The notes under the pieces were generated by a model. That model saw nothing but the letters and a program-made list of their open reading frames with translations, ran no database searches and was not told the origin of the DNA. A stretch of DNA of 51,896 nucleotides, from positions 1 to 51,896 of the IMG/VR virus record IMGVR_UViG_3300035494_000021; one strand, written 5' to 3'. The position numbers and the translations under genes were made by a program. Source of the stretch: a virus. This document shows, piece by piece, positions 1 through 51,896 of this stretch; position 1 is the first letter of the stretch; each line of letters opens with the position of its first letter.

Positions 1-127
1 GTGAGCCCTAAGCCGTATATTTGTTCAAAGCGAAGCAACTATACGAGGGCCGACGTATCTGGGAACAATGTTGTGATTATAATCCTATAGTAGTTATCAT
101 AACCATCTATAAAGGCTACTCATAAGA
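1..127. repeat. Exact 127-bp copy of the window end (51770-51896): closure overlap of a circular or terminally redundant assembly
   Basis: Both ends read base by base. Positions 1-127 and 51770-51896 are identical, so the unique length is 51769 bp. Confidence 0.95.
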
Positions 128-12989: not shown

Positions 12990-14102
12990 TTAACCTACAA
13001 AGATTTCATCGAAGTCGACGATAACATACAAGCGCAGATTGGTTGAAACATCTGCATCTTCATTACGCTCATCGATATTTACCGCCACAAGTGACGGAAG
13101 CGGTGTGTTGTATTGCGCAACCAGATTCAGTCCGGCTGTGATTGTGATTGACTCAACATAGCGAGTCACGCCATTTGCAATCCAACGTAGTCGCGTTGTG
13201 TACGCCTCTAGCACCTTGTTGTACTTCAATCGTCCCAGAGTATACTCAGTATTTTGATACACAAATCTGGTATCATACTCAGTCGAATATGGTACTTCGA
13301 TATGCTCATACTCAGAGAAATCCGATGGAATATCTATTGATACTTGCTTTACACTTGATACTGCTGGTGCCAAGGCTCTTGCGCCACTACGGGCTGTTGC
13401 CATATATACACTAGCAGCAGGGGCTGCAAAGCTAGTTAGCTGGTCTGTGATTGCCGCCTCACCATCAGAGTTGTTTGTACTCTGTGGGACGGAGTCTGGG
13501 CGATTTACAGTGACCACATTCAGCTGCTCGAAGGTCAACTGCATGGGAAGGCTGTACGAATCCTGTACAGTGTTCGAGACACTATATTCACGGATTACGC
13601 AGTTCTGCTTAATACCACGCAGCGTTACCACATGTACAAGCATGCCTAGCTGATTGAGTCGGTTGATGATTTCAAATGTGCTGTCAATCTTCTCCATTGA
13701 CACCTGTCCCAACAGCGCCGTAGCGACGGAGTTGGTAACGGGTGAGGAGAAGAATGGTAGCGTCAATGCATCATTATCATACTTAGCACGGCCTTCACGG
13801 ATAGTGGTTTCGTACGCAATGTTTGCAAATCCAACAGCCGCCATTAGCTCATTAAAGGACTCTTTAAAATCCTTTCGTAACGTGCTCACCGACATCGAGA
13901 AATTTGACTGCAGGACGTTGGCAGTAAAGATGCGGTTCAGACGGATTGCATGGTCGGATACCATAAATCCGGAATCGACAGGATACGATGTTACCTGCAC
14001 AGCTCCAGAATGTTGTTCGGATAGTGCAGCATCAAAAGCCAACACGTTCCATTTGTTGTTCTCTTCCCATACAATCAGTAGCTCTCTCAGTTTATTAGCC
14101 AT
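12990..14102 (-). CDS. Baseplate hub-region protein (function unassigned)
   Basis: ORF downstream of the tape-measure-position gene. ATG at 14102 is preferred over the GTG at 14126. Confidence 0.55.
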   Translation of the reverse strand: MANKLRELLIVWEENNKWNVLAFDAALSEQHSGAVQVTSYPVDSGFMVSDHAIRLNRIFTANVLQSNFSMSVSTLRKDFKESFNELMAAVGFANIAYETTIREGRAKYDNDALTLPFFSSPVTNSVATALLGQVSMEKIDSTFEIINRLNQLGMLVHVVTLRGIKQNCVIREYSVSNTVQDSYSLPMQLTFEQLNVVTVNRPDSVPQSTNNSDGEAAITDQLTSFAAPAASVYMATARSGARALAPAVSSVKQVSIDIPSDFSEYEHIEVPYSTEYDTRFVYQNTEYTLGRLKYNKVLEAYTTRLRWIANGVTRYVESITITAGLNLVAQYNTPLPSLVAVNIDERNEDADVSTNLRLYVIVDFDEIFVG

Positions 14103-15159
14103 ATACTTCTGCGTCTCCTGAGTCACCTGCGGTTGGAATTGTACAGATCAAAGTCGATAACCAATCTGGACCATAGTTATCAATTCGATGTACTACACGC
14201 AGCACCATATATACTTGCATAGATGCCCATTCTGCTACATCATCGACATAGAATAGTGGGTTGCCTACAGCAGTCCATTCGGTGATGCCTTGTGCTGGTT
14301 GGCTGGTATCACCACGTGTTCCATCAATCGAGCCTACATCCACAACCCATCCTGGATAGATGGTAGGAGAGAATGTATACGGGATTTCTAGAGAGGCAAG
14401 CCCTGCTACAGGTGTCCCTCGTACAAGAGGCACTTGAATATCAAAGCGGTTGCCGTCATCTTGAAGGACGTTGAATGCAGTAATACCAGAATCAGTGTTG
14501 TTGATTCGAGGGTAGAAGCCGATACCAGCCGCAGTGTGATGATAATCAAATTGATATTGCGTGGCGAGTTTATTCAACGCACCTAGCAGACTATCATCAC
14601 CCATTGATTTAATGGAGCCAGTCCAGCGTTGGTTCAGCTTCTCGGCAGATAGTTTGAACTCCAATCCGCCTTCTGTGTACCCTGCGCTTGTACACATTTC
14701 TGTAAGGACTTTTCTCAATGTGTAGCCATCGTTAATTCCCGCATTGATCTCTTTGAAATCTTGACGCAGGAACGAGCTAGACACTGGCAGAATATATAGA
14801 TGGGTTAATGAGTTTGGTCTTGCTCTGACTGCAGTAGCATTCATTACAATCCCATCGATCAGCAGTGGATACTTACCAGTTGCATCAATCTCATCTTCAT
14901 ACCCAGCAAAGATTCGAATAAACACCTTATTAGGCTCACGAACCTTTGCCGCATTTCGGTCTGTTGATGATTGATGGTCACCAGTAATTAATTGTCGCTG
15001 GTTCTTCCCTGATAGGTTGTAGATGGTCACATGCGCCTGTGACAGCGCTTGTGCCAAACTCATATCCATGCTGACCGTGATCTTCAAATCTGAAATGGTA
15101 AGAAAGGGCTCTTCGGTCAGAGATCGTCTTGCCTCAACTTGAATCACACGTTTATACAT
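14095..15159 (-). CDS. Tail/baseplate hub-region protein (function unassigned)
   Basis: 354-aa ORF. Its start overlaps the upstream stop (TAATG). Confidence 0.55.
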   Translation of the reverse strand: MYKRVIQVEARRSLTEEPFLTISDLKITVSMDMSLAQALSQAHVTIYNLSGKNQRQLITGDHQSSTDRNAAKVREPNKVFIRIFAGYEDEIDATGKYPLLIDGIVMNATAVRARPNSLTHLYILPVSSSFLRQDFKEINAGINDGYTLRKVLTEMCTSAGYTEGGLEFKLSAEKLNQRWTGSIKSMGDDSLLGALNKLATQYQFDYHHTAAGIGFYPRINNTDSGITAFNVLQDDGNRFDIQVPLVRGTPVAGLASLEIPYTFSPTIYPGWVVDVGSIDGTRGDTSQPAQGITEWTAVGNPLFYVDDVAEWASMQVYMVLRVVHRIDNYGPDWLSTLICTIPTAGDSGDAEVYG

Positions 15160-18100
15160 TAGTGGTATCCTCTACCTTGGTTGTATGGCTTGCGGGTTGT
15201 AGTGCGGCCATCACCAGCGTCAGTAACAACCTCAACACCATTAGCATTAAGGTTGACATCAACTTTGATTGGCATTCCTGCGCTATACCCACTTTGCCAT
15301 TTCGATGGTGCACGACCACCATAAGCTGCTTTGTATGCTGCCTCTGCCGTAGAGTTGCCGGATACATCGAAAGCGCTCTTCTCAGCACCTTCACGAGAGT
15401 ACATTACTCGCAATGCTTTAGCAGCTTGCTTGTTGCCACTGACGTCGAATCCTACCTGCTCCATGGCTGGTGCGCCCTCCGTCCCTTTGAGCACCATCAA
15501 GATTTCAGCGATATTACCTGCAATATCGGTCATTACACCTGTCTGCAAGTTCTCAATAGCGGTCTTGACGAGGTTGACACCCTCATTGAGTGTCATCTGG
15601 GATTCGGACGCACCAGTCTTCACTAGTGTCTGGAGGCCAGTTTGTTCTGCAATAGCTGACATTTGCATATCAGAGTATCCACGAGCACGACCACGTTCCA
15701 TCATACGGTCACGTAATTGTGTAGCCGTAATATCGCCGCGGCTCAAAGAGTTGATGTCACCGAAGTTCATCAAGCCACGAGAGCCCACTACCATGTTTAC
15801 AGCATTATCAGTGAAGCCAAGGGTCATTCCACCAGCACTACGTCCCATAGCCATAACATCATTAGACGCCTGCTCACGGGAATAATACTGATTACTGATT
15901 GCATCACGTTGTCGTTGGAAGGAGCTTCTAGAGACACCTGCAACACCTGCCTGATAAGACAAGTTTAGGCCAACAGAGTTTACAGCATCAGCAGTATTAT
16001 ACGCAGCGCCAGCTACACCAGTAACTAGGTTAATCGCTCGCCCAATCGGACCAGCACCTGCCATAGCAGCTCGGAATACACCACCTAATCCTTGTGGAGC
16101 ATCGCGGCCAGAGAGGGCATTGTAGCCGAAATCGTTTCCACGACCTCCACCACCACCACCGCCACGGCCACCGCCACCAGTAGCAGGGGTTGGCATCCCC
16201 ATTTGCTCGGCTAGCATGCCTGAGTTTTCGACACCGTATCGTTGAGACAGCTTCTCGAAGGATTTGATGTTACCTTCTTCTACCGCCTTCGCGAATTTCT
16301 TACGGGTGTCTTCATCCATGTTGGCTAGCTGATTAGCTACACGCCCAGCTTCTTCCCATCGGCCTTTATTTCGATTTACATATTCCTCATCACGATCAAT
16401 TGTTCGGCGACGAATATTCGACTCGTTAACTCCTTTACGTCCTAGTGGCTGTAGTGGGTCAACTGGGTCACGCAAGATTTCAACAAGGTCAGTCTGTGTT
16501 TGCCCCGTCATCCACATCTGGTACTGGGTTTGTTCCCAGTTCTTACGATAGGTCTTTAAGTCTTGCTGGCCCTGAGAAGTAGTTAAATCTAATTTATCAG
16601 GATCGATGAATCGATTTCGAGATTTGACCTCAACAGGTCGGAAGCCTTGATTAGGTGATACCGCATCAAGAGTGGCCGCATTACCAACACGGTTAGGGTC
16701 AGTGACAGTACCTGGTTGGAATGCTTCTTTATCAACATTCTTTCGATACCAATCTACCGCATGCTGCTCTAGGATGTCACCAGACTTTTGCCAGATGTTT
16801 GGCTTCTGTGCTGGTAGTGGGCGATCATGCGTGAGAGCATCACGAATCAGATTCGCATATGCACCTTCCGCTGTATCTGGGTTGGCTAGCATCCCTGCGG
16901 AAGTAGCTGTAATTTTACCCAGACGATCACGACGCCATTTCGAGTTTGCCTCTAGTTTGTCGTCATCACTAAAGCCCATTGTCAGACCAGTCTGAGAGAG
17001 CCATGCTGACATTGCTGCATCTGGAGAACCATATGCTGCCGCCATACGCTGCTCTGTCTTAACTTCCGCTGCTGCCTGAATAACGCTACCTGTAGCTGGT
17101 GCTACCGGAGATGCAGCAGGGTTGACTTTGCGTCGTGCCTTTGGAGTTGCCTTTCGTGGAGGAGTTGGGGTATATTGAACAGCCGTTGGGACTGTGGTCG
17201 TTACACCAGTGTCGAGTGGTACACCAACTTGAGTAACATCAGAGCGCTGATTGATCAAACGTTGGATTGCTTGATCAATATTATCGTCCATTGCCGCAGC
17301 TTCAAATTCGATGGTGTCGCCGCCTTGGAGAGACTGCATTACCACTTCTCGAAGAAGGGAGCGGTTGTTTACTTGATCTCCTTGAAGATCAGCATCAGTG
17401 AATGATAACATCTGCATCCCAGACTTGATTGCTTCTGAGATATCGTTAGTTACTTCAAACTCGTAATTGCCCTTTACTTCAGAGCCATAAAGGGACTTAA
17501 CTGTTTGGGATGGGTCAGCTAAACCCGCAGCAGCTAACTCATCTTGTAGGTAGCGTAGCTCTTTCGAGCTAGTATTGCGTGCCTTAGATAAGCCACCACC
17601 TTCATCCTTATAAGCTTGGCGAAGCTCTCTGAATGATTCTGCATATGGTGATGTGTAAGTACCATCTTCATTTTGTGTCCATGCCTTGTCGATACGCCCC
17701 ACAAGGAATTGTGAGTTCGACGACGCAATCAGTTTCGCTACTTCTGATACTGATGGGAAAGCCTGAGTGATACCTGGGCCCAAGCCTTTTGTTGGGTCTT
17801 TCTGGAACTGTGCCAAGCCGATATTTGCTAGACGGGCAGGTAATAGTTTATTAAGAGCGCCAGACACTTGTCCGACCATATCACTATACCCAGCACTCAG
17901 CTCACCACCTTCAAACGCTTCAGAGTCAATATACGCTCTGGCGATTGCTCCAAGGTGGTTACTCTGCTCACGCAATCGACCTACCCATTTATCACCAGAG
18001 TCTGGTGTGATTAGGTCTGGCGCATCTAGCTGTTGCTTGTATCCTTCTCGCGACAAAGTCATTGCCCCGACCACATCTAGTGCGCGGTCAATAGGGGACT

Positions 18101-18791
18101 TCTTCGCGTTATACGAGCGGCGTTGTGCAGACGACATCTTGTCACCCCAGTCCCTTTCTAGCGAACCCTCTTCACGTGGGCTGCCGTAATTGGTATCGGC
18201 TTGTGCCAATGCTTGTCGGAAGTGGATTGGGTTAAGTCCTGCTTCTCCCAACATATAATACAGCTGTTCGGATGGCACTGTACTATTTGCGAAACCACTG
18301 TGGGAAATGCCGAAGTACTGACTTAGTTGCTTGGAAAGAGTTAGAGCCGCACCAGCAGCTTCTGGACCAGACTCGATTAGACGACCTGCCAGAATTTGTT
18401 CTGATGATGTACGCTCTTGCAGATAACTCGCGGAGTGTACTGATTCTGTATGGCCTGCCAAAGAGGACAGGATATCATCATCAGCCCAGAAGCCTAGTCT
18501 ACCGCTTGCACTCGCTGTTTCCAGCGCATAATCCGGATCGTGCTCGATCAGATCATTTCGTCTTGCCTCGTGGTATTGACGTGTCTTCCAGCTTTGATTG
18601 CTCGACGTGATACCGTTGTTTGACTGCTGTTGCCCGAAGGGATTATTAACATTGGCATATGTTGCCATTGTCGGCTTCGGCTCTGCACCTCGACGTGCTT
18701 TGTTGACGACAGAAGTGCCGCCAAGCAGTTGTCGATTACGCTCACCTTTGCCACGAGGTTTACCAAGCGATAACGTAGGACGTTTAGCCAT
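15159..18791 (-). CDS. Tape-measure-position protein (1210 aa) with embedded YqaJ/lambda-exonuclease-like PD-(D/E)XK domain
   Basis: Lies between the frameshifted chaperone pair and the baseplate genes. The C-terminal ~330 aa are Gly/Ala-rich and tape-measure-like. Residues ~612-800 carry WRRDRLGKITATS, GDILEQHAVDWY, ATLDAV...VEVKSR and YQMWMTGQTQTDLVEI in the YqaJ order. A GGGGRGGGGGGGRG run sits at aa 872-885. AAAGGAG RBS. Confidence 0.7.
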   Translation of the reverse strand: MAKRPTLSLGKPRGKGERNRQLLGGTSVVNKARRGAEPKPTMATYANVNNPFGQQQSNNGITSSNQSWKTRQYHEARRNDLIEHDPDYALETASASGRLGFWADDDILSSLAGHTESVHSASYLQERTSSEQILAGRLIESGPEAAGAALTLSKQLSQYFGISHSGFANSTVPSEQLYYMLGEAGLNPIHFRQALAQADTNYGSPREEGSLERDWGDKMSSAQRRSYNAKKSPIDRALDVVGAMTLSREGYKQQLDAPDLITPDSGDKWVGRLREQSNHLGAIARAYIDSEAFEGGELSAGYSDMVGQVSGALNKLLPARLANIGLAQFQKDPTKGLGPGITQAFPSVSEVAKLIASSNSQFLVGRIDKAWTQNEDGTYTSPYAESFRELRQAYKDEGGGLSKARNTSSKELRYLQDELAAAGLADPSQTVKSLYGSEVKGNYEFEVTNDISEAIKSGMQMLSFTDADLQGDQVNNRSLLREVVMQSLQGGDTIEFEAAAMDDNIDQAIQRLINQRSDVTQVGVPLDTGVTTTVPTAVQYTPTPPRKATPKARRKVNPAASPVAPATGSVIQAAAEVKTEQRMAAAYGSPDAAMSAWLSQTGLTMGFSDDDKLEANSKWRRDRLGKITATSAGMLANPDTAEGAYANLIRDALTHDRPLPAQKPNIWQKSGDILEQHAVDWYRKNVDKEAFQPGTVTDPNRVGNAATLDAVSPNQGFRPVEVKSRNRFIDPDKLDLTTSQGQQDLKTYRKNWEQTQYQMWMTGQTQTDLVEILRDPVDPLQPLGRKGVNESNIRRRTIDRDEEYVNRNKGRWEEAGRVANQLANMDEDTRKKFAKAVEEGNIKSFEKLSQRYGVENSGMLAEQMGMPTPATGGGGRGGGGGGGRGNDFGYNALSGRDAPQGLGGVFRAAMAGAGPIGRAINLVTGVAGAAYNTADAVNSVGLNLSYQAGVAGVSRSSFQRQRDAISNQYYSREQASNDVMAMGRSAGGMTLGFTDNAVNMVVGSRGLMNFGDINSLSRGDITATQLRDRMMERGRARGYSDMQMSAIAEQTGLQTLVKTGASESQMTLNEGVNLVKTAIENLQTGVMTDIAGNIAEILMVLKGTEGAPAMEQVGFDVSGNKQAAKALRVMYSREGAEKSAFDVSGNSTAEAAYKAAYGGRAPSKWQSGYSAGMPIKVDVNLNANGVEVVTDAGDGRTTTRKPYNQGRGYH
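16392..16958 (-). other. YqaJ-like nuclease domain segment of the 1210-aa protein
   Basis: Coordinates computed from aa ~612-800 of the 15159-18791 ORF. Putative catalytic residues are D709, E721 and K723. Confidence 0.55.
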
Positions 18792-19409
18792 TTGGCTCTC
18801 CTTTGTACAGTTCAGTTCTTACATCCATCAGCTCGTGCATCAGATGTAGATCAAATAAAGAGTAAGAGCCATCAGACAAATCACGCATCTGACACATCGG
18901 AGGGTTAGACAAGACGCCACGGTAAAGGTAGAAATCGACATCGGGAAATAATTCATCGATAGTCTTTGGTCGTACCTCTAAGGGATCGTATTGGGGTTCT
19001 TCTCCGGCTCTTTTGATTGCTGTAAGATCTCGGCTAATCGGGCGTTGAGTTCTAGCCCTTGCTCGAAAAAATCTTTATAGTTTACCTCGCATACAAATGC
19101 TAGGATTTTAAAGACCTTCATCAGGTCTCCTGAGAAAGCTACGTTGAATGTACCTTCCTGAATTTCTTTGCCATCAACACGAGCGGCACTTACGAATCGC
19201 TTCATAAGAGATACCAGCTCAGTTTTGTTAGCACCTGCCATTACTGACACTAGATCATTAAGACCATAACGGTTCTCAACGAATGAACCGAAGGCTGGCC
19301 CAAGAACTTGGACCGCCTCCGTCATATTTTCTAGTGCAACAGAAGCAGGCCATTGGCGGACATATACCGGAATATCATCGATAATACGGTTCATATCTTT
19401 ACAGGCCAT
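18784..19409 (-). CDS. Tail assembly chaperone, predicted -1 frameshift fusion (gpGT-like, ~208 aa)
   Basis: The -1 frame is open from the slippery site through 93 codons to TAA at 18784-18786, filling the otherwise empty 186-bp gap. Hand-translated extension ends ...TIDELFPDVDFYLYRGVLSNPP...TELYKGEPNG. Confidence 0.55.
18978..19409 (-). CDS. Tail assembly chaperone (gpG-like, frame 0 product)
   Basis: 143-aa ORF immediately upstream of the tape-measure-position gene and downstream of the tube gene. Confidence 0.65.
   Translation of the reverse strand: MACKDMNRIIDDIPVYVRQWPASVALENMTEAVQVLGPAFGSFVENRYGLNDLVSVMAGANKTELVSLMKRFVSAARVDGKEIQEGTFNVAFSGDLMKVFKILAFVCEVNYKDFFEQGLELNARLAEILQQSKEPEKNPNTIP
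19065..19071 (-). other. Candidate -1 slippery heptanucleotide T_TTT_TTC
   Basis: In frame 0 it reads GAT TTT TTC (D113 F114 F115), which fits X_XXY_YYZ. Confidence 0.5.
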
Positions 19410-35347: not shown

Positions 35348-36262
35348 TTAGCCTCTCATGCTAATGACTTCCTGCTTATGAGGATCAAACCAAGAGTTTT
35401 GAAACTCTTCAGATTTAAAGTGCCACAATTGGAACGAACCATCATCATTCAATCGGTTCGTCATAAACAAACAACGGCCATATTGAAGGAGCTTTTCTTC
35501 CCATGCGTCACCAAAGCGTTTCTTGTACTCATGCTGCACGATACCCATAAGTTTCGGATATGTGATCGCATGCTCAAGAAGTTCGTATGCTTTCACTGGG
35601 CCAATGCCTTCGCGAGCAACATATGCCTGACCTGCTTTCACACCAGACTTGTAGACTTTCTCAATCATCTCGCCACAGCCGATGATACCATCAGTCGGGT
35701 CGCCAATCAGAAGCTGGTAGCAGAAGAATCGGATACCGTTACCAGTGATCTTTGTCTTCGAGCCCTTCACCTCTTTGATCAGCTTACCCATGCCAGTCAC
35801 TTCGAAGATCTCTTCACCTTTGTGTTGAGTCTCCCAACGGTAATGCATACCACGGACTTGCGGGATATCTTTATCGATTGTAGCAATGATGGTTGTGCCA
35901 TCTGTTTTCTGGTTGATTGCTAGCAGGTCATCAGCTTCCAGACCTGGCTCCATTTCACCTTGGAACACAGTCATCACATGAGCTTTAGCATTAGCCAAGT
36001 TCTCAGGGATGTACGCACCTTTACGGTTCGCTTTGTATTCAGGCAAGACCACGTAACGGAAGTTGTCTTTCGAACTGAAGAAGATACGCACTTTACGTGC
36101 TTTCAGTCGCTTCTTCATTGCCATGATGCGGCCTTCGATGTTGTTCGCGATTTGGGCGAAATCATATTCTTCCGCCTCACGACCATATTCGATGGCTGCA
36201 CACGAACTGAACACCAGCAAGTCGCCGTCGATCAGTAGTTCTTCGTAATCATACTCAGCCAT
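35348..36262 (-). CDS. 5'-3' exonuclease / flap endonuclease (PIN-like FEN family)
   Basis: The N-terminal LLIDGDLLVFS and later acidic clusters (EADDLL, TIDKD) are typical of 53EXO/FEN enzymes. ATG at 36262 follows AGGTGA. Confidence 0.7.
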   Translation of the reverse strand: MAEYDYEELLIDGDLLVFSSCAAIEYGREAEEYDFAQIANNIEGRIMAMKKRLKARKVRIFFSSKDNFRYVVLPEYKANRKGAYIPENLANAKAHVMTVFQGEMEPGLEADDLLAINQKTDGTTIIATIDKDIPQVRGMHYRWETQHKGEEIFEVTGMGKLIKEVKGSKTKITGNGIRFFCYQLLIGDPTDGIIGCGEMIEKVYKSGVKAGQAYVAREGIGPVKAYELLEHAITYPKLMGIVQHEYKKRFGDAWEEKLLQYGRCLFMTNRLNDDGSFQLWHFKSEEFQNSWFDPHKQEVISMRG

Positions 36263-36455
36263 GGTTATCACCTGTGATGGTTACGTTGCCACAGAAGTGG
36301 CTACGAATGTTACCAAGGCTGTATGTTACGACGCCTTCTTTTGTTTCCAAGACTAGTCGCCAGTCATTCTCGATTACGACTTTGACTTCGTCCTCTGGAT
36401 AGAATACTGTCGAGCCATCGACATGTTGAATCAAGATACCTTTCGCTGTGCTCAT
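36255..36455 (-). CDS. Small hypothetical protein
   Basis: ATG at 36455 follows GGAG. 66 aa. Confidence 0.55.
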   Translation of the reverse strand: MSTAKGILIQHVDGSTVFYPEDEVKVVIENDWRLVLETKEGVVTYSLGNIRSHFCGNVTITGDNHG

Positions 36456-51753: not shown

Positions 51754-51778
51754 CTAGCGGGCGAACGTAGTGAGCCCT
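51754..51778 (-). promoter_or_regulatory. Promoter-like motif copy f (AGGGCTC-N14-CTAG)
   Basis: Minus strand reads AGGGCTCACTACGTTCGCCCGCTAG followed by GAACAGC. It is 10 nt from copy e, and its upstream half is also present at 1-9. Confidence 0.5.
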
Positions 51779-51896
51779 AAGCCGTATATTTGTTCAAAGC
51801 GAAGCAACTATACGAGGGCCGACGTATCTGGGAACAATGTTGTGATTATAATCCTATAGTAGTTATCATAACCATCTATAAAGGCTACTCATAAGA
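51770..51896. repeat. Second copy of the 127-bp terminal overlap
   Basis: Identical to 1-127. It starts inside a copy of the promoter-like motif at 51754-51778. Confidence 0.95.

Follow-up and report, generated by a model that had tools for sequence, protein, structure and literature searches.

Our analysis of the window, the whole stretch of 51,896 nucleotides, identified what is apparently an active enzyme of the lambda exonuclease type as the central domain of a 1210-residue protein encoded in the tape measure position of a myophage. We suggest, tentatively and at a likelihood somewhat short of even, that this open reading frame (ORF) is a tape measure protein with an ancestral inserted nuclease, and that it provides a virion-delivered 5'->3' exonuclease which resects the phage's own terminal repeats of about 3 kb.

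The genome is complete and that of a Chaseviridae-like myophage of about 51.8 kb, or 51,769 bp once an assembly overlap of 127 nt is removed. Its size was in keeping with the 52-56 kb of the Chaseviridae, and the myophage structural module, together with a single-subunit, T7-like RNA polymerase encoded at 157-2316, placed the phage in this family as a Nefertitivirinae-like member. Its best relatives are Chaseviridae of Vibrio, Aeromonas and Shewanella. The tail genes are arranged in the order tail completion, sheath, tube, tail assembly chaperone, 1210-aa ORF, baseplate hub, Dit-like (12990-14126), spike-like, PAAR and wedge, with the following features around the ORF:

Positions 18978-19409, minus strand: tail assembly chaperone (Phage_TAC_15; Pfam 72.8 bits, phrog_11820)
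Positions 18784-19071, minus strand: slippery heptamer T_TTT_TTC at 19065-19071 and -1 extension (DUF6889; sequence and translation of the -1 frame)
Positions 15159-18791, minus strand: 1210-aa ORF, putative virion protein in the tape measure position, PHROG 149 (ORF list, translation, synteny with tail genes)
Positions 14095-15159, minus strand: baseplate hub, directly downstream of the 1210-aa ORF (phrog_196; weak E217_GP41 match)

Translation confirmed that the ORF at 15159-18791 is real and lies on the minus strand, with which the range of 16392-16958 given for its nuclease domain in an earlier sequence-only reading is consistent. That reading had placed the ORF in the tape measure slot, and synteny, with the chaperone upstream and the hub downstream, bore this out; homologues in the equivalent slot are 1150-1400 aa long. 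It had also described the chaperone as frameshifted, and a programmed frameshift is plausible here, given the T_TTT_TTC heptamer, a -1 frame that stays open from the heptamer to 18784 and reaches 8 nt into the tape measure ORF, and the match of this frame to DUF6889 (Pfam, 28.7 bits against a cut-off of 23.9). The same small ORF was found upstream of a distant tape measure protein bearing a YqaJ-type nuclease domain (L012). Genome-wide PHROG annotation of the ORFs yielded no second tape measure candidate, and the tail fibres have three genes of their own in other parts of the genome. No Pfam tape measure family matched the 1210-aa protein at E ≤ 1, which is weak counter-evidence, tape measure proteins being notoriously diverse. 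The sole PHROG match of the protein was to phrog_149 (E 2e-111), labelled 'exonuclease', which it shares with GJ1 gp62, 4HA13 gp67, Y2 gp76, ZPAH14 gp34 and VPs20 UYD72124. From its N-terminus, the protein comprises:

Positions 17352-18509, minus strand: N-terminal conserved region, aa 95-480 (about 40% identity to distant homologues)
Positions 17040-17351, minus strand: variable Pro/Thr/Ala/Val-rich linker, aa 481-584, including TPTPPRKATPKARRK (composition, conservation)
Positions 16347-16958, minus strand: core of predicted lambda-exonuclease/YqaJ fold, aa 612-815 (Pfam, PDB profile, AlphaFold2, Foldseek)
Positions 16923-16925, minus strand: codon of R623, counterpart of lambda exonuclease R28 in the 5'-phosphate pocket (hhalign)
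Positions 16623-16667, minus strand: PD-(D/E)XK motif, D709 ... E721-V-K723 (translation gives DAVSPNQGFRPVEVK)
Positions 16197-16346, minus strand: most conserved segment, aa 816-865, FAKAVEEGNIKSFEKL (51.1% identity to distant homologues)
Positions 16137-16178, minus strand: Gly/Arg run, aa 872-885, GGGGRGGGGGGGRG (translation)
Positions 15162-16091, minus strand: Gly/Ala-rich C-terminal region, aa 901-1210 (BLASTP to GJ1 gp62, composition)

An AlphaFold2 model of aa 585-830 (16302-17039) reached a pLDDT of 90.6 and a pTM of 0.87, and its top Foldseek matches in the PDB were lambda exonuclease (3sm4/1avq), LHK-Exo and 3k93 (E 3e-8 to 3e-7, probability 1.00), with TM scores of 0.57-0.71 against lambda exonuclease/YqaJ structures and of 0.70 against LHK-Exo. 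The profile of the domain matched the LHK-Exo exonuclease 3syy when compared with the PDB (E 1.5e-4). Pfam YqaJ (PF09588) scored 16.8 bits on aa 618-764 of the window protein (E 0.0084), below the cut-off of 22, and this sub-threshold match spans positions 1-149 of the 150 in the profile; the homologues P0003 (46.8 bits), P0013 (38.4), GJ1 (43.9), 4HA13 (39.7) and PM1 (43.6) all exceeded the cut-off. Searching the PDB with the whole protein by phmmer returned Gly-linker artefacts only, and a word-indexed homologue search with aa 585-830 alone returned nothing, the parent protein likewise being missed. The PD-(D/E)XK nuclease domain proposed by the sequence-only reading is upheld by profile, by structure and by hhalign alignment to lambda exonuclease, and the motifs it quoted were all found (KWRRDRLGKITATS, GDILEQHAVDWY, ATLD(709)AV...VE(721)VK(723) and YQMWMTGQTQTDLVEI). 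The resemblance goes beyond chance.

In the hhalign alignment, R623, D709, E721 and K723 correspond to R28, D119, E129 and K131 of lambda exonuclease, in which Arg-28 has a role in binding the 5'-phosphate (PMC11611040), and the QxQxQM helix aligns with QVQYSM of that enzyme. The W..R.G..T(A/G)S motif is represented by W619, R623, G625 and T628, and the QxQxxM helix by Q754, Q756 and M759. None of R623, D709, E721 and K723 varied in the 18 closest homologues, which answers the earlier call to check the three catalytic residues in the affirmative, and their D/E/K equivalents were present in the GJ1-type proteins. D709, E721 and K723 were retained even in relatives detected only at E of about 1e-9; the catalytic and 5'-phosphate residues were kept in relatives P0001 to P0031, those of P0032-P0038 being judged by eye. 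GJ1, 4HA13, PM1 and Y2 carry the equivalent motifs SPDG, WEHK and DQxQxGM, and equivalent motifs were seen in every tape-measure-type relative examined. Identity to distant homologues was 47.7% in the nuclease domain compared to 35-40% in the flanking regions, and the one segment to surpass the domain in conservation is aa 816-865, which adjoins it. These alignments show that the predicted catalytic triad is intact and is accompanied by a putative 5'-phosphate-binding arginine.

In the remainder of the protein, Pfam and PDB profile searches gave no match for aa 95-480, to which we assign no fold. The sequence-only reading had considered only the last ~330 residues to be tape-measure-like, a restriction that is not well supported, since AlphaFold2 predicted aa 95-480 to be mostly helical as well, at low confidence (pLDDT 58.6, pTM 0.35), and collinearity with GJ1-type proteins covers roughly aa 266-1050. 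Among internal stretches, conservation is lowest in the linker at aa 481-584 (20.7% identity, 21% gaps), and the segment at aa 816-865, found in all tape-measure-type relatives, has no enzymatic signature. The 14-residue Gly/Arg run described before is indeed present at aa 872-885, with Gly-rich runs at the equivalent place in homologues and GJ1-type proteins, and probably serves as a flexible linker from the nuclease module to the C-terminal region. The latter contains 13% Gly and 13% Ala, has stretches that are no more than moderately hydrophobic (top Kyte-Doolittle 19-residue mean 1.09), matched residues 914-972 of GJ1 gp62 by BLASTP over aa 997-1058 (E 5e-8), and is presumed to be the baseplate-proximal end of the tape measure. 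Tape measure proteins set tail length at about 0.15 nm per residue, at which rate the ~1000 non-nuclease residues would correspond to ~150 nm and all 1210 residues to ~180 nm in this phage; tails in the family measure 110-166 nm.

We also examined how widely the fusion occurs. No relatives of the ORF were found in the phage collection by megablast and tblastn was required, giving identities of 65% to VPs20 (UYD72124) and about 37% to Aeromonas and Shewanella phages, and more than 100 records of the collection matched the protein of the tape measure slot. The 16 closest clusters, among 1.84 billion representatives, were 802-1398 aa in length with the nuclease domain internal in all, and distant members occupy the same sheath-tube-chaperone-X-hub slot; for the distant relatives P0032 and P0025, short contigs gave no informative gene context. 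Pfam YqaJ was located at the equivalent position in GJ1 gp62, 4HA13 gp67 (aa 453-589) and PM1_051. In Cleopatravirinae relatives (GJ1 gp62, 4HA13, Y2, PM1) it occurs together with an SLT domain, which is absent from the window protein, a divergent Nefertitivirinae-like member. When full-length profiles of the window-type and GJ1-type proteins were compared by hhalign, they aligned collinearly over 686 columns (probability 98.6%, E 6e-16), which points to an ancestral origin of the fusion, a trait found throughout the Chaseviridae. Direct comparison of the window-type domain profile with the GJ1-type domain gave an E of 0.34, below significance, which raised the possibility of two independent insertions; this was rejected because the full-length profiles are collinear through the domain. 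A selfish insertion of the homing endonuclease or intein type was likewise rejected, the domain being fixed family-wide, and YqaJ is not a homing nuclease.

Database labels for these proteins include 'exonuclease' and 'YqaJ' (PHROGs, RefSeq, UniProt), 'tail fiber' and 'hypothetical', annotations of orthologues conflict (tail fiber, tail tube initiator, endonuclease, tape measure protein), and this type of ORF was called a tail fibre in several GenBank records and in PMC8762354. Our search of the literature on tape measure proteins, YqaJ, nuclease domains, Chaseviridae and GJ1 found no discussion of the fusion, in agreement with the earlier impression that it is undescribed; that impression needs qualifying in so far as the proteins already bear the automatic labels 'exonuclease' or 'YqaJ' in the three databases.

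Evidence from virions is available for 4HA13, where the orthologue, a 'tail tape measure protein' of 128,217 Da, was recovered with 64-67% coverage from CsCl-purified virions (PMC9699118 Table S2). The sheath gave equal coverage, and a non-structural SSB was also present in the preparation (PMC9699118). In addition, annotation lists GJ1 gp62 and Y2 gp76 among the structural proteins of the virion. The presence in virions that the sequence-only reading had asked to see confirmed was observed for the 4HA13 orthologue at the level of the protein, and each refuting outcome named by that reading that we examined turned out in its favour; the virion data do not resolve the nuclease segment, since such coverage is attainable without any peptide from the ~200-aa domain. 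As the orthologue was found in purified virions, we take the window protein to be a virion component, which is supported indirectly.

We propose that a complete YqaJ-type domain was inserted into the tape measure protein in the common ancestor of the Chaseviridae, with a variable Pro-rich linker upstream and a Gly-rich linker downstream. The domain would be carried inside the tail lumen, inactive and not yet assembled, and leave the tail before the DNA, and the three copies provided by the tape measure trimer could then form a ring like that of lambda exonuclease. A folded ring of this kind is wider than the lumen of the tail tube, so that the model requires an unfolded or staggered state. Once assembled, the ring would resect 5'-phosphorylated double-stranded ends in the 5'->3' direction, its most likely substrate being the linear genome of the phage itself as it enters. 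Lambda exonuclease works processively as a ring-shaped homotrimer and requires a 5'-phosphate (PMC11611040), and direct terminal repeats of about 3 kb are known in the Chaseviridae (PMC12842549, PMC9699118); they are not visible in the assembly of the window genome. Resection at the two genome ends would uncover 3' single strands complementary to each other. By annealing, these could circularise or concatemerise the genome, and they offer RecBCD poor entry points, all without any new gene expression. What counts against end resection is that myophage tape measure proteins may not reach the cytoplasm at all, and that YqaJ nucleases are usually paired with a single-strand annealing protein, of which none was detected: RecT, Red-beta, Erf and Sak had no match when ORFs of 100 aa or more were scanned with PHROGs, and the neighbours of the nuclease-bearing ORF are tail genes, with no annealing partner adjoining. 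The genome also encodes a separate FEN/T7 gp6-like exonuclease (35348-36271), which could be an alternative for terminal-repeat recombination. In a bolder version, which we regard as rather improbable, the tape measure trimer brings a preassembled or self-assembling ring to the cytoplasmic exit of the injection channel, the leading genome end threads through it and the 5' strand is digested during injection, making it an end-processing device and possibly an electrostatic ratchet that assists DNA uptake. If true, circularisation via the ~3-kb repeats and evasion of RecBCD would be independent of gene expression, and a DNA-processing enzyme would for the first time be known as part of a phage tape measure protein.

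Compared to known systems, the window domain has in common with the lambda exonuclease/YqaJ family (lambda Exo, LHK-Exo 3syy, Bacillus YqaJ) the predicted fold, the motifs W..R.G..T.S, G..E, D...ExK and QxQxxM, and the 5'-phosphate arginine. Unlike the known members, which are stand-alone proteins of ~200-350 aa encoded in the early or recombination region and usually beside an annealing protein, it lies in the middle of a late tail protein. Enzymatic tape measure proteins, such as those of mycobacteriophage TM4 (Rpf motif) and T5 (Pb2 peptidase), are likewise long lumen proteins encoded in the chaperone-to-hub slot, with a catalytic module delivered on infection. These act on the peptidoglycan of the envelope, which contains no substrate for a DNA exonuclease, whose role would therefore lie at or past the cytoplasmic membrane. 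Contractile injection systems deliver Tde/Rhs nuclease effectors (T6SS) and lumen-loaded toxins (eCIS), and the DNA-end proteins T4 gp2 and Mu N are injected too; all are likewise delivered by a contractile tail-like machine and act on DNA or its ends, but as separate cargo or tip proteins outside the tape measure, and we know of none that is of the lambda exonuclease type. T7 gp6 and the herpesvirus UL12 alkaline nuclease resect redundant linear genomes 5'->3' into concatemers or circles; they are synthesised after infection, whereas the window enzyme would arrive pre-made with the virion. UL12 falls within the PD-(D/E)XK superfamily (PMC11611040).

Alternatively, a delivered nuclease could attack foreign DNA in the manner of the effectors of type VI secretion and other contractile injection systems, its targets being the chromosome (for early host shut-off or nucleotide supply), plasmids or prophages, a competitor phage, or the DNA or nucleic-acid signals of a defence system. 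A conserved, intact predicted nuclease in a virion-type protein would suit such a role, the lack of a detected annealing partner fits destruction better than recombination, and the genome encodes an RNA polymerase and enzymes of nucleotide metabolism, as is typical of lytic phages that shut down the host. We nonetheless consider it unlikely. Tape measure proteins are present in few copies per virion, which is not much enzyme for degrading DNA in bulk. The linear ends of the phage genome would also be without protection from the same enzyme, and a free 5'-phosphorylated double-stranded end is needed (PMC11611040), which an intact circular chromosome or plasmid does not offer. It is also quite doubtful that the nuclease works in the producing cell, as a replication or recombination exonuclease that is free or cleaved at a linker, with the virion containing a trimmed protein or an inert passenger. 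The Pro-rich linker and Gly-rich run beside the domain would be accessible to proteases, and some phage tape measure proteins are proteolytically processed, lambda gpH providing a precedent. The virion coverage of 4HA13, not being resolved to the nuclease segment, would leave room for such trimming; the gene is, moreover, divided into two or three annotated ORFs in the 2014 records of pAh6-C and Spp001, but the breakpoints differ and the splits could be sequencing errors. The coverage of the 128-kDa 4HA13 protein matches that of the sheath, a late structural gene is an unusual home for a replication enzyme, and two independent functions would hardly be expected to stay together in a single ORF in nearly all genomes over deep divergence.

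That the domain was co-opted structurally, with catalysis absent or irrelevant, seems to us highly improbable; in this reading it would be a plug, a ring for trimerisation, or a clamp that either grips the DNA end at the top of the tail or guides DNA along the channel that the tape measure protein forms. Tape measure proteins are trimeric, a stoichiometry equal to that of the ring trimer. The trimer ring of lambda exonuclease encircles DNA (PMC11611040), and the even more conserved aa 816-865 would agree with an architectural function; under it, one would not expect both subfamilies and every deep-branching relative to retain the catalytic and 5'-phosphate residues, as they do. We give hardly any credence to a spurious similarity, in which there is no nuclease domain or the ORF encodes a tail fibre, say, instead of a tape measure protein. 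The sub-threshold YqaJ score of the window protein alone, the miss in the Pfam tape measure families and the disagreement among orthologue annotations would favour it, but profile, structure and residue evidence agree on a nuclease, and the ORF lies between the frameshifted chaperone and the hub in a genome that has its tail-fibre genes elsewhere and no rival tape measure gene.

A conserved, apparently active DNA exonuclease in a tape measure protein, as opposed to the known modules that degrade the cell wall, would imply one of two things: a portion of the protein gets to the DNA side of the membrane, or phage DNA is processed during entry. Recognition of the fusion would correct the widespread misannotation of the gene as 'tail fiber', 'exonuclease' or 'hypothetical', and since the Chaseviridae are an ICTV family that includes culturable phages of E. 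coli, Erwinia, Aeromonas and Vibrio considered for biocontrol, the question is directly testable. It touches on the early-infection survival and circularisation of linear, terminally redundant genomes, on the fate of tape measure proteins after ejection, and on the delivery of nucleic-acid-active cargo by phage tails, as by T6SS and eCIS.

The first and last 127 nt of the window (1-127 and 51770-51896) form an exact direct repeat, a signature of circular closure, and the window is therefore a complete, circularly assembled phage genome with a unique length of 51,769 bp. In a circularly closed assembly the direct terminal repeat of about 3 kb typical of Chaseviridae would be collapsed, so that its position is not locatable in the window. 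All window ORFs with a protein-family match lie on the minus strand. The gene complement and the features discussed below are as follows.

Replication and metabolism: T7-like RNA polymerase, primase/helicase, DNA polymerase, FEN-like exonuclease, ligase, ribonucleotide reductase and an SSB-like protein
Head and packaging: terminase, portal and major head protein
Tail: contractile-tail module and three tail-fibre genes
18791 down to 15159, minus strand: single ORF of 1210 aa with an ATG start (the large ORF)
19065-19071, minus strand: canonical slippery heptamer T_TTT_TTC within the tail assembly chaperone (TAC) gene
18784-19074, minus strand: -1 frame of the TAC gene, with 93 further open codons past the heptamer, ending 8 nt into the large ORF

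The ORF list and translation returned the large ORF at the coordinates proposed in the sequence-only reading, with every motif quoted there at its given residue numbers, including DAVSPNQGFRPVEVK at aa 709-723 and the Gly/Arg run at aa 872-885. Cysteine is absent from the 1210-aa protein. Its tblastn matches place it among Chaseviridae: it shares 65% identity with vB_VpaM_VPs20, a Vibrio phage of the Nefertitivirinae, and 35-39% with Aeromonas and Shewanella phages of the family; megablast against the phage collection gave no nucleotide-level match.

Gene order around the large ORF runs from tail completion, sheath (PF11863), tube (PF11681) and TAC, through the large ORF itself, to baseplate hub, Dit-like, spike-like, PAAR and wedge genes. 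The TAC matches Pfam Phage_TAC_15 (72.8 bits), its -1 frame extension matches Pfam DUF6889 above threshold, and the G/GT-type product predicted from the frameshift is about 208 aa long. On another contig, a distant relative of the large ORF is likewise preceded by this small ORF. With a frameshifted TAC upstream, the hub downstream and no other gene in the genome qualifying as a tape measure protein, the large ORF therefore sits in the tape-measure slot, as had been proposed from the sequence.

The earlier suggestion that this protein carries a YqaJ-type PD-(D/E)XK nuclease was borne out by both profile and structure. Scanned alone, the large ORF matches Pfam YqaJ below threshold (16.8 bits, E 0.0084), in an alignment that spans the entire profile; it is a member of PHROG 149, labelled 'exonuclease' (E 2e-111). 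Most of the 18 homologues retrieved (1183-1340 aa) have a precomputed PF09588 match, and rescanning two of them gave 46.8 and 38.4 bits for Pfam YqaJ. A profile of aa 585-830 built from 11 sequences matched the LHK-Exo alkaline exonuclease (PDB 3syy) at E 1.5e-4. The AlphaFold2 model of the same segment is confident (pLDDT 90.6, pTM 0.87), and the solved structures closest to it are those of lambda exonuclease (3sm4, 1avq), LHK-Exo (3syy, 3sz4) and a prophage exonuclease from Haemophilus (3k93), with TM 0.5-0.7, E 3e-8 to 3e-7 and a probability of 1.00.

When the profile was aligned with lambda exonuclease (sequence from the lambda genome record), R623 fell opposite R28, D709 opposite D119, E721 opposite E129 and K723 opposite K131, and QTQYQMW opposite QVQYSMW. 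Lambda exonuclease is a ring-shaped homotrimer that degrades processively at 5-40 nt per second, requires a 5'-phosphate bound by Arg-28, and holds two Mg2+ ions through acidic active-site residues (PMC11611040). Judged from sequence, an intact lambda-exonuclease-type active site in the large ORF is established. The predicted catalytic residues D709, E721 and K723 proved invariant in the 18 close homologues, as did W619, R623, E675, Q754, Q756 and M759. Every tape-measure-type relative found by scanning 1.84 billion representative proteins keeps this set of nine residues; in four of them (P0032, P0034, P0035 and P0038) the ExK motif is shifted out of register by an insertion, with E-F-K visible in the sequence.

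Regional identity between the large ORF protein and its 16 more distant homologues
aa 101-480, N-terminal region: 39.8%
aa 481-584, upstream linker: 20.7%
aa 612-815, nuclease domain: 47.7%
aa 816-865, segment after the nuclease domain: 51.1%
aa 901-1075, C-terminal Gly/Ala-rich region: 34.8%

At 47.7% identity the nuclease domain thus ranks with the regions of the protein under the strongest constraint, which argues for a selected catalytic function. The top-conserved stretch is the adjoining aa 816-865 (window 16197-16346, …FAKAVEEGNIKSFEKL…), which is recognisable in all tape-measure-type relatives and has no family match. Further upstream, aa 95-480 are conserved, give a low-confidence, mostly helical AlphaFold2 model and have no family match in Pfam or a PDB profile search. 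The C-terminal 310 aa are Gly/Ala-rich and only moderately hydrophobic, and contain the sole stretch that BLASTP aligns with gp62 of phage GJ1. Tape measure proteins usually span about 0.15 nm per residue; at this value the roughly 1000 non-nuclease residues would reach about 150 nm and all 1210 about 180 nm. Reported Chaseviridae tails measure 110-130 nm (PMC8472413) or 116-166 nm (PMC12842549), so the arithmetic allows, without proving it, that the nuclease module adds nothing to ruler length.

In each of the 16 representative clusters nearest the nuclease domain (E < 1e-10) the protein is 802-1398 aa long with the domain in mid-protein, and stand-alone YqaJ proteins (200-350 aa) first appear at an E of about 5e-9 in the scan of 1.84 billion representatives. 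Both distant members that we located on contigs are flanked by a Phage_TAC_15 chaperone on one side and hub/Dit-like genes on the other, in the same kind of structural module. The nuclease domain also occurs in the other Chaseviridae subfamily: in GJ1 gp62 (1239 aa; L003 18232-21951), YqaJ at aa 459-591 (43.9 bits) is joined by an SLT lytic transglycosylase domain at aa 1045-1149; the pair recurs in 4HA13 gp67, with YqaJ at aa 453-589, and in PM1_051, and Y2 gp76 keeps the motifs, although YqaJ is not listed for it by Pfam. The window-type nuclease-domain profile gave no direct match to GJ1, the domains of the two subfamilies being too diverged. A full-length profile-profile comparison of these subfamilies was nevertheless collinear over 686 columns (probability 98.6%, E 6e-16), running through the N-terminal region, nuclease, conserved helix, Gly-rich run and C-terminal region, and the simplest reading is that a single ancestral fusion would have brought the nuclease into the tape-measure protein. 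SLT near the C-terminus is present in Cleopatravirinae orthologues (L003-L006) and absent from the large ORF and Nefertitivirinae-type homologues; in the window lineage, peptidoglycan degradation for entry is therefore supplied elsewhere, or not at all. In the 2014 GenBank records of Aeromonas phage pAh6-C (L014 1114-4708) and Shewanella phage Spp001 (L015 1312-4772), the orthologue is annotated as two or three ORFs, with breaks that differ in position between the two phages and one pAh6-C break just ahead of the nuclease domain; these could be sequencing errors or may be real gene splits.

We identified the YqaJ-bearing orthologue of 4HA13 as its 'tail tape measure protein' (128,217 Da), which was recovered by LC-MS/MS of CsCl-purified particles at 64% and 67% coverage, equal to that of the sheath (PMC9699118 Table S2). 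This indirectly supports the family protein as a virion component, the 64-67% being a whole-protein figure not specific to the nuclease segment. A 13-kDa single-stranded DNA-binding protein was also present in these particles at 62% coverage (PMC9699118 Table S2); it could have been packaged or have contaminated the preparation, and packaging would be relevant if an exonuclease is co-delivered.

What the domain does there we can only propose. Tape measure proteins are trimers, and RecBCD needs blunt DNA ends. The nuclease would have to be inactive inside the tail lumen, because it lies near the DNA end and the folded ring is too big to fit. It would leave the tail ahead of the DNA, whereupon the three copies from the trimer could build the ring typical of the lambda-exonuclease family. 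The phage's own ends would then be resected 5'->3', baring complementary 3' strands from which circles or concatemers could form, and also taking away the blunt ends that RecBCD requires. With all steps beyond virion presence inferred, own-end resection is the most economical role, because the linear genomes of Chaseviridae end in direct repeats of about 3 kb (PMC12842549, PMC9699118). Against it, the scanned window ORFs yielded no annealing protein of the RecT, Red-beta or Erf type, a separate FEN/T7 gp6-like 5'-3' exonuclease (phrog_107; 35348-36271, minus strand) is encoded in the replication module, and tape measure proteins may not get as far as the cytoplasm. Rival explanations are that the domain attacks host or competitor DNA, that it acts intracellularly after proteolytic release, or that it is a purely structural ring.

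More than 100 phage records disagree on what to call the orthologue (tail fiber, tail tube initiator, putative endonuclease, tape measure, virion structural, hypothetical), and at least one study called it the 'large main tail fiber protein' and treated it as the main tail fibre in discussing host range (PMC8762354). The sequence-only reading knew of no description of this fusion, and our full-text literature search likewise found no paper on a tape measure protein with a nuclease inside it; the combination is, however, already visible in automated labels, for example 'exonuclease' for PHROG 149, 'exonuclease'/yqaJ in RefSeq for ZPAH14 and 'YqaJ viral recombinase domain-containing protein' in UniProt for a pAh6-C fragment.

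Taken together, our results show that the tape measure-nuclease fusion is real and family-wide and, to the extent of our search, undescribed, and that strong constraint on the nuclease domain and its family-wide tape-measure position are established. The enzymatic modules known in tape measure proteins degrade peptidoglycan, and YqaJ nucleases are known as stand-alone recombination enzymes. In contrast, the module of the large ORF is predicted to be of the DNA exonuclease type and is fused into a tape measure protein.
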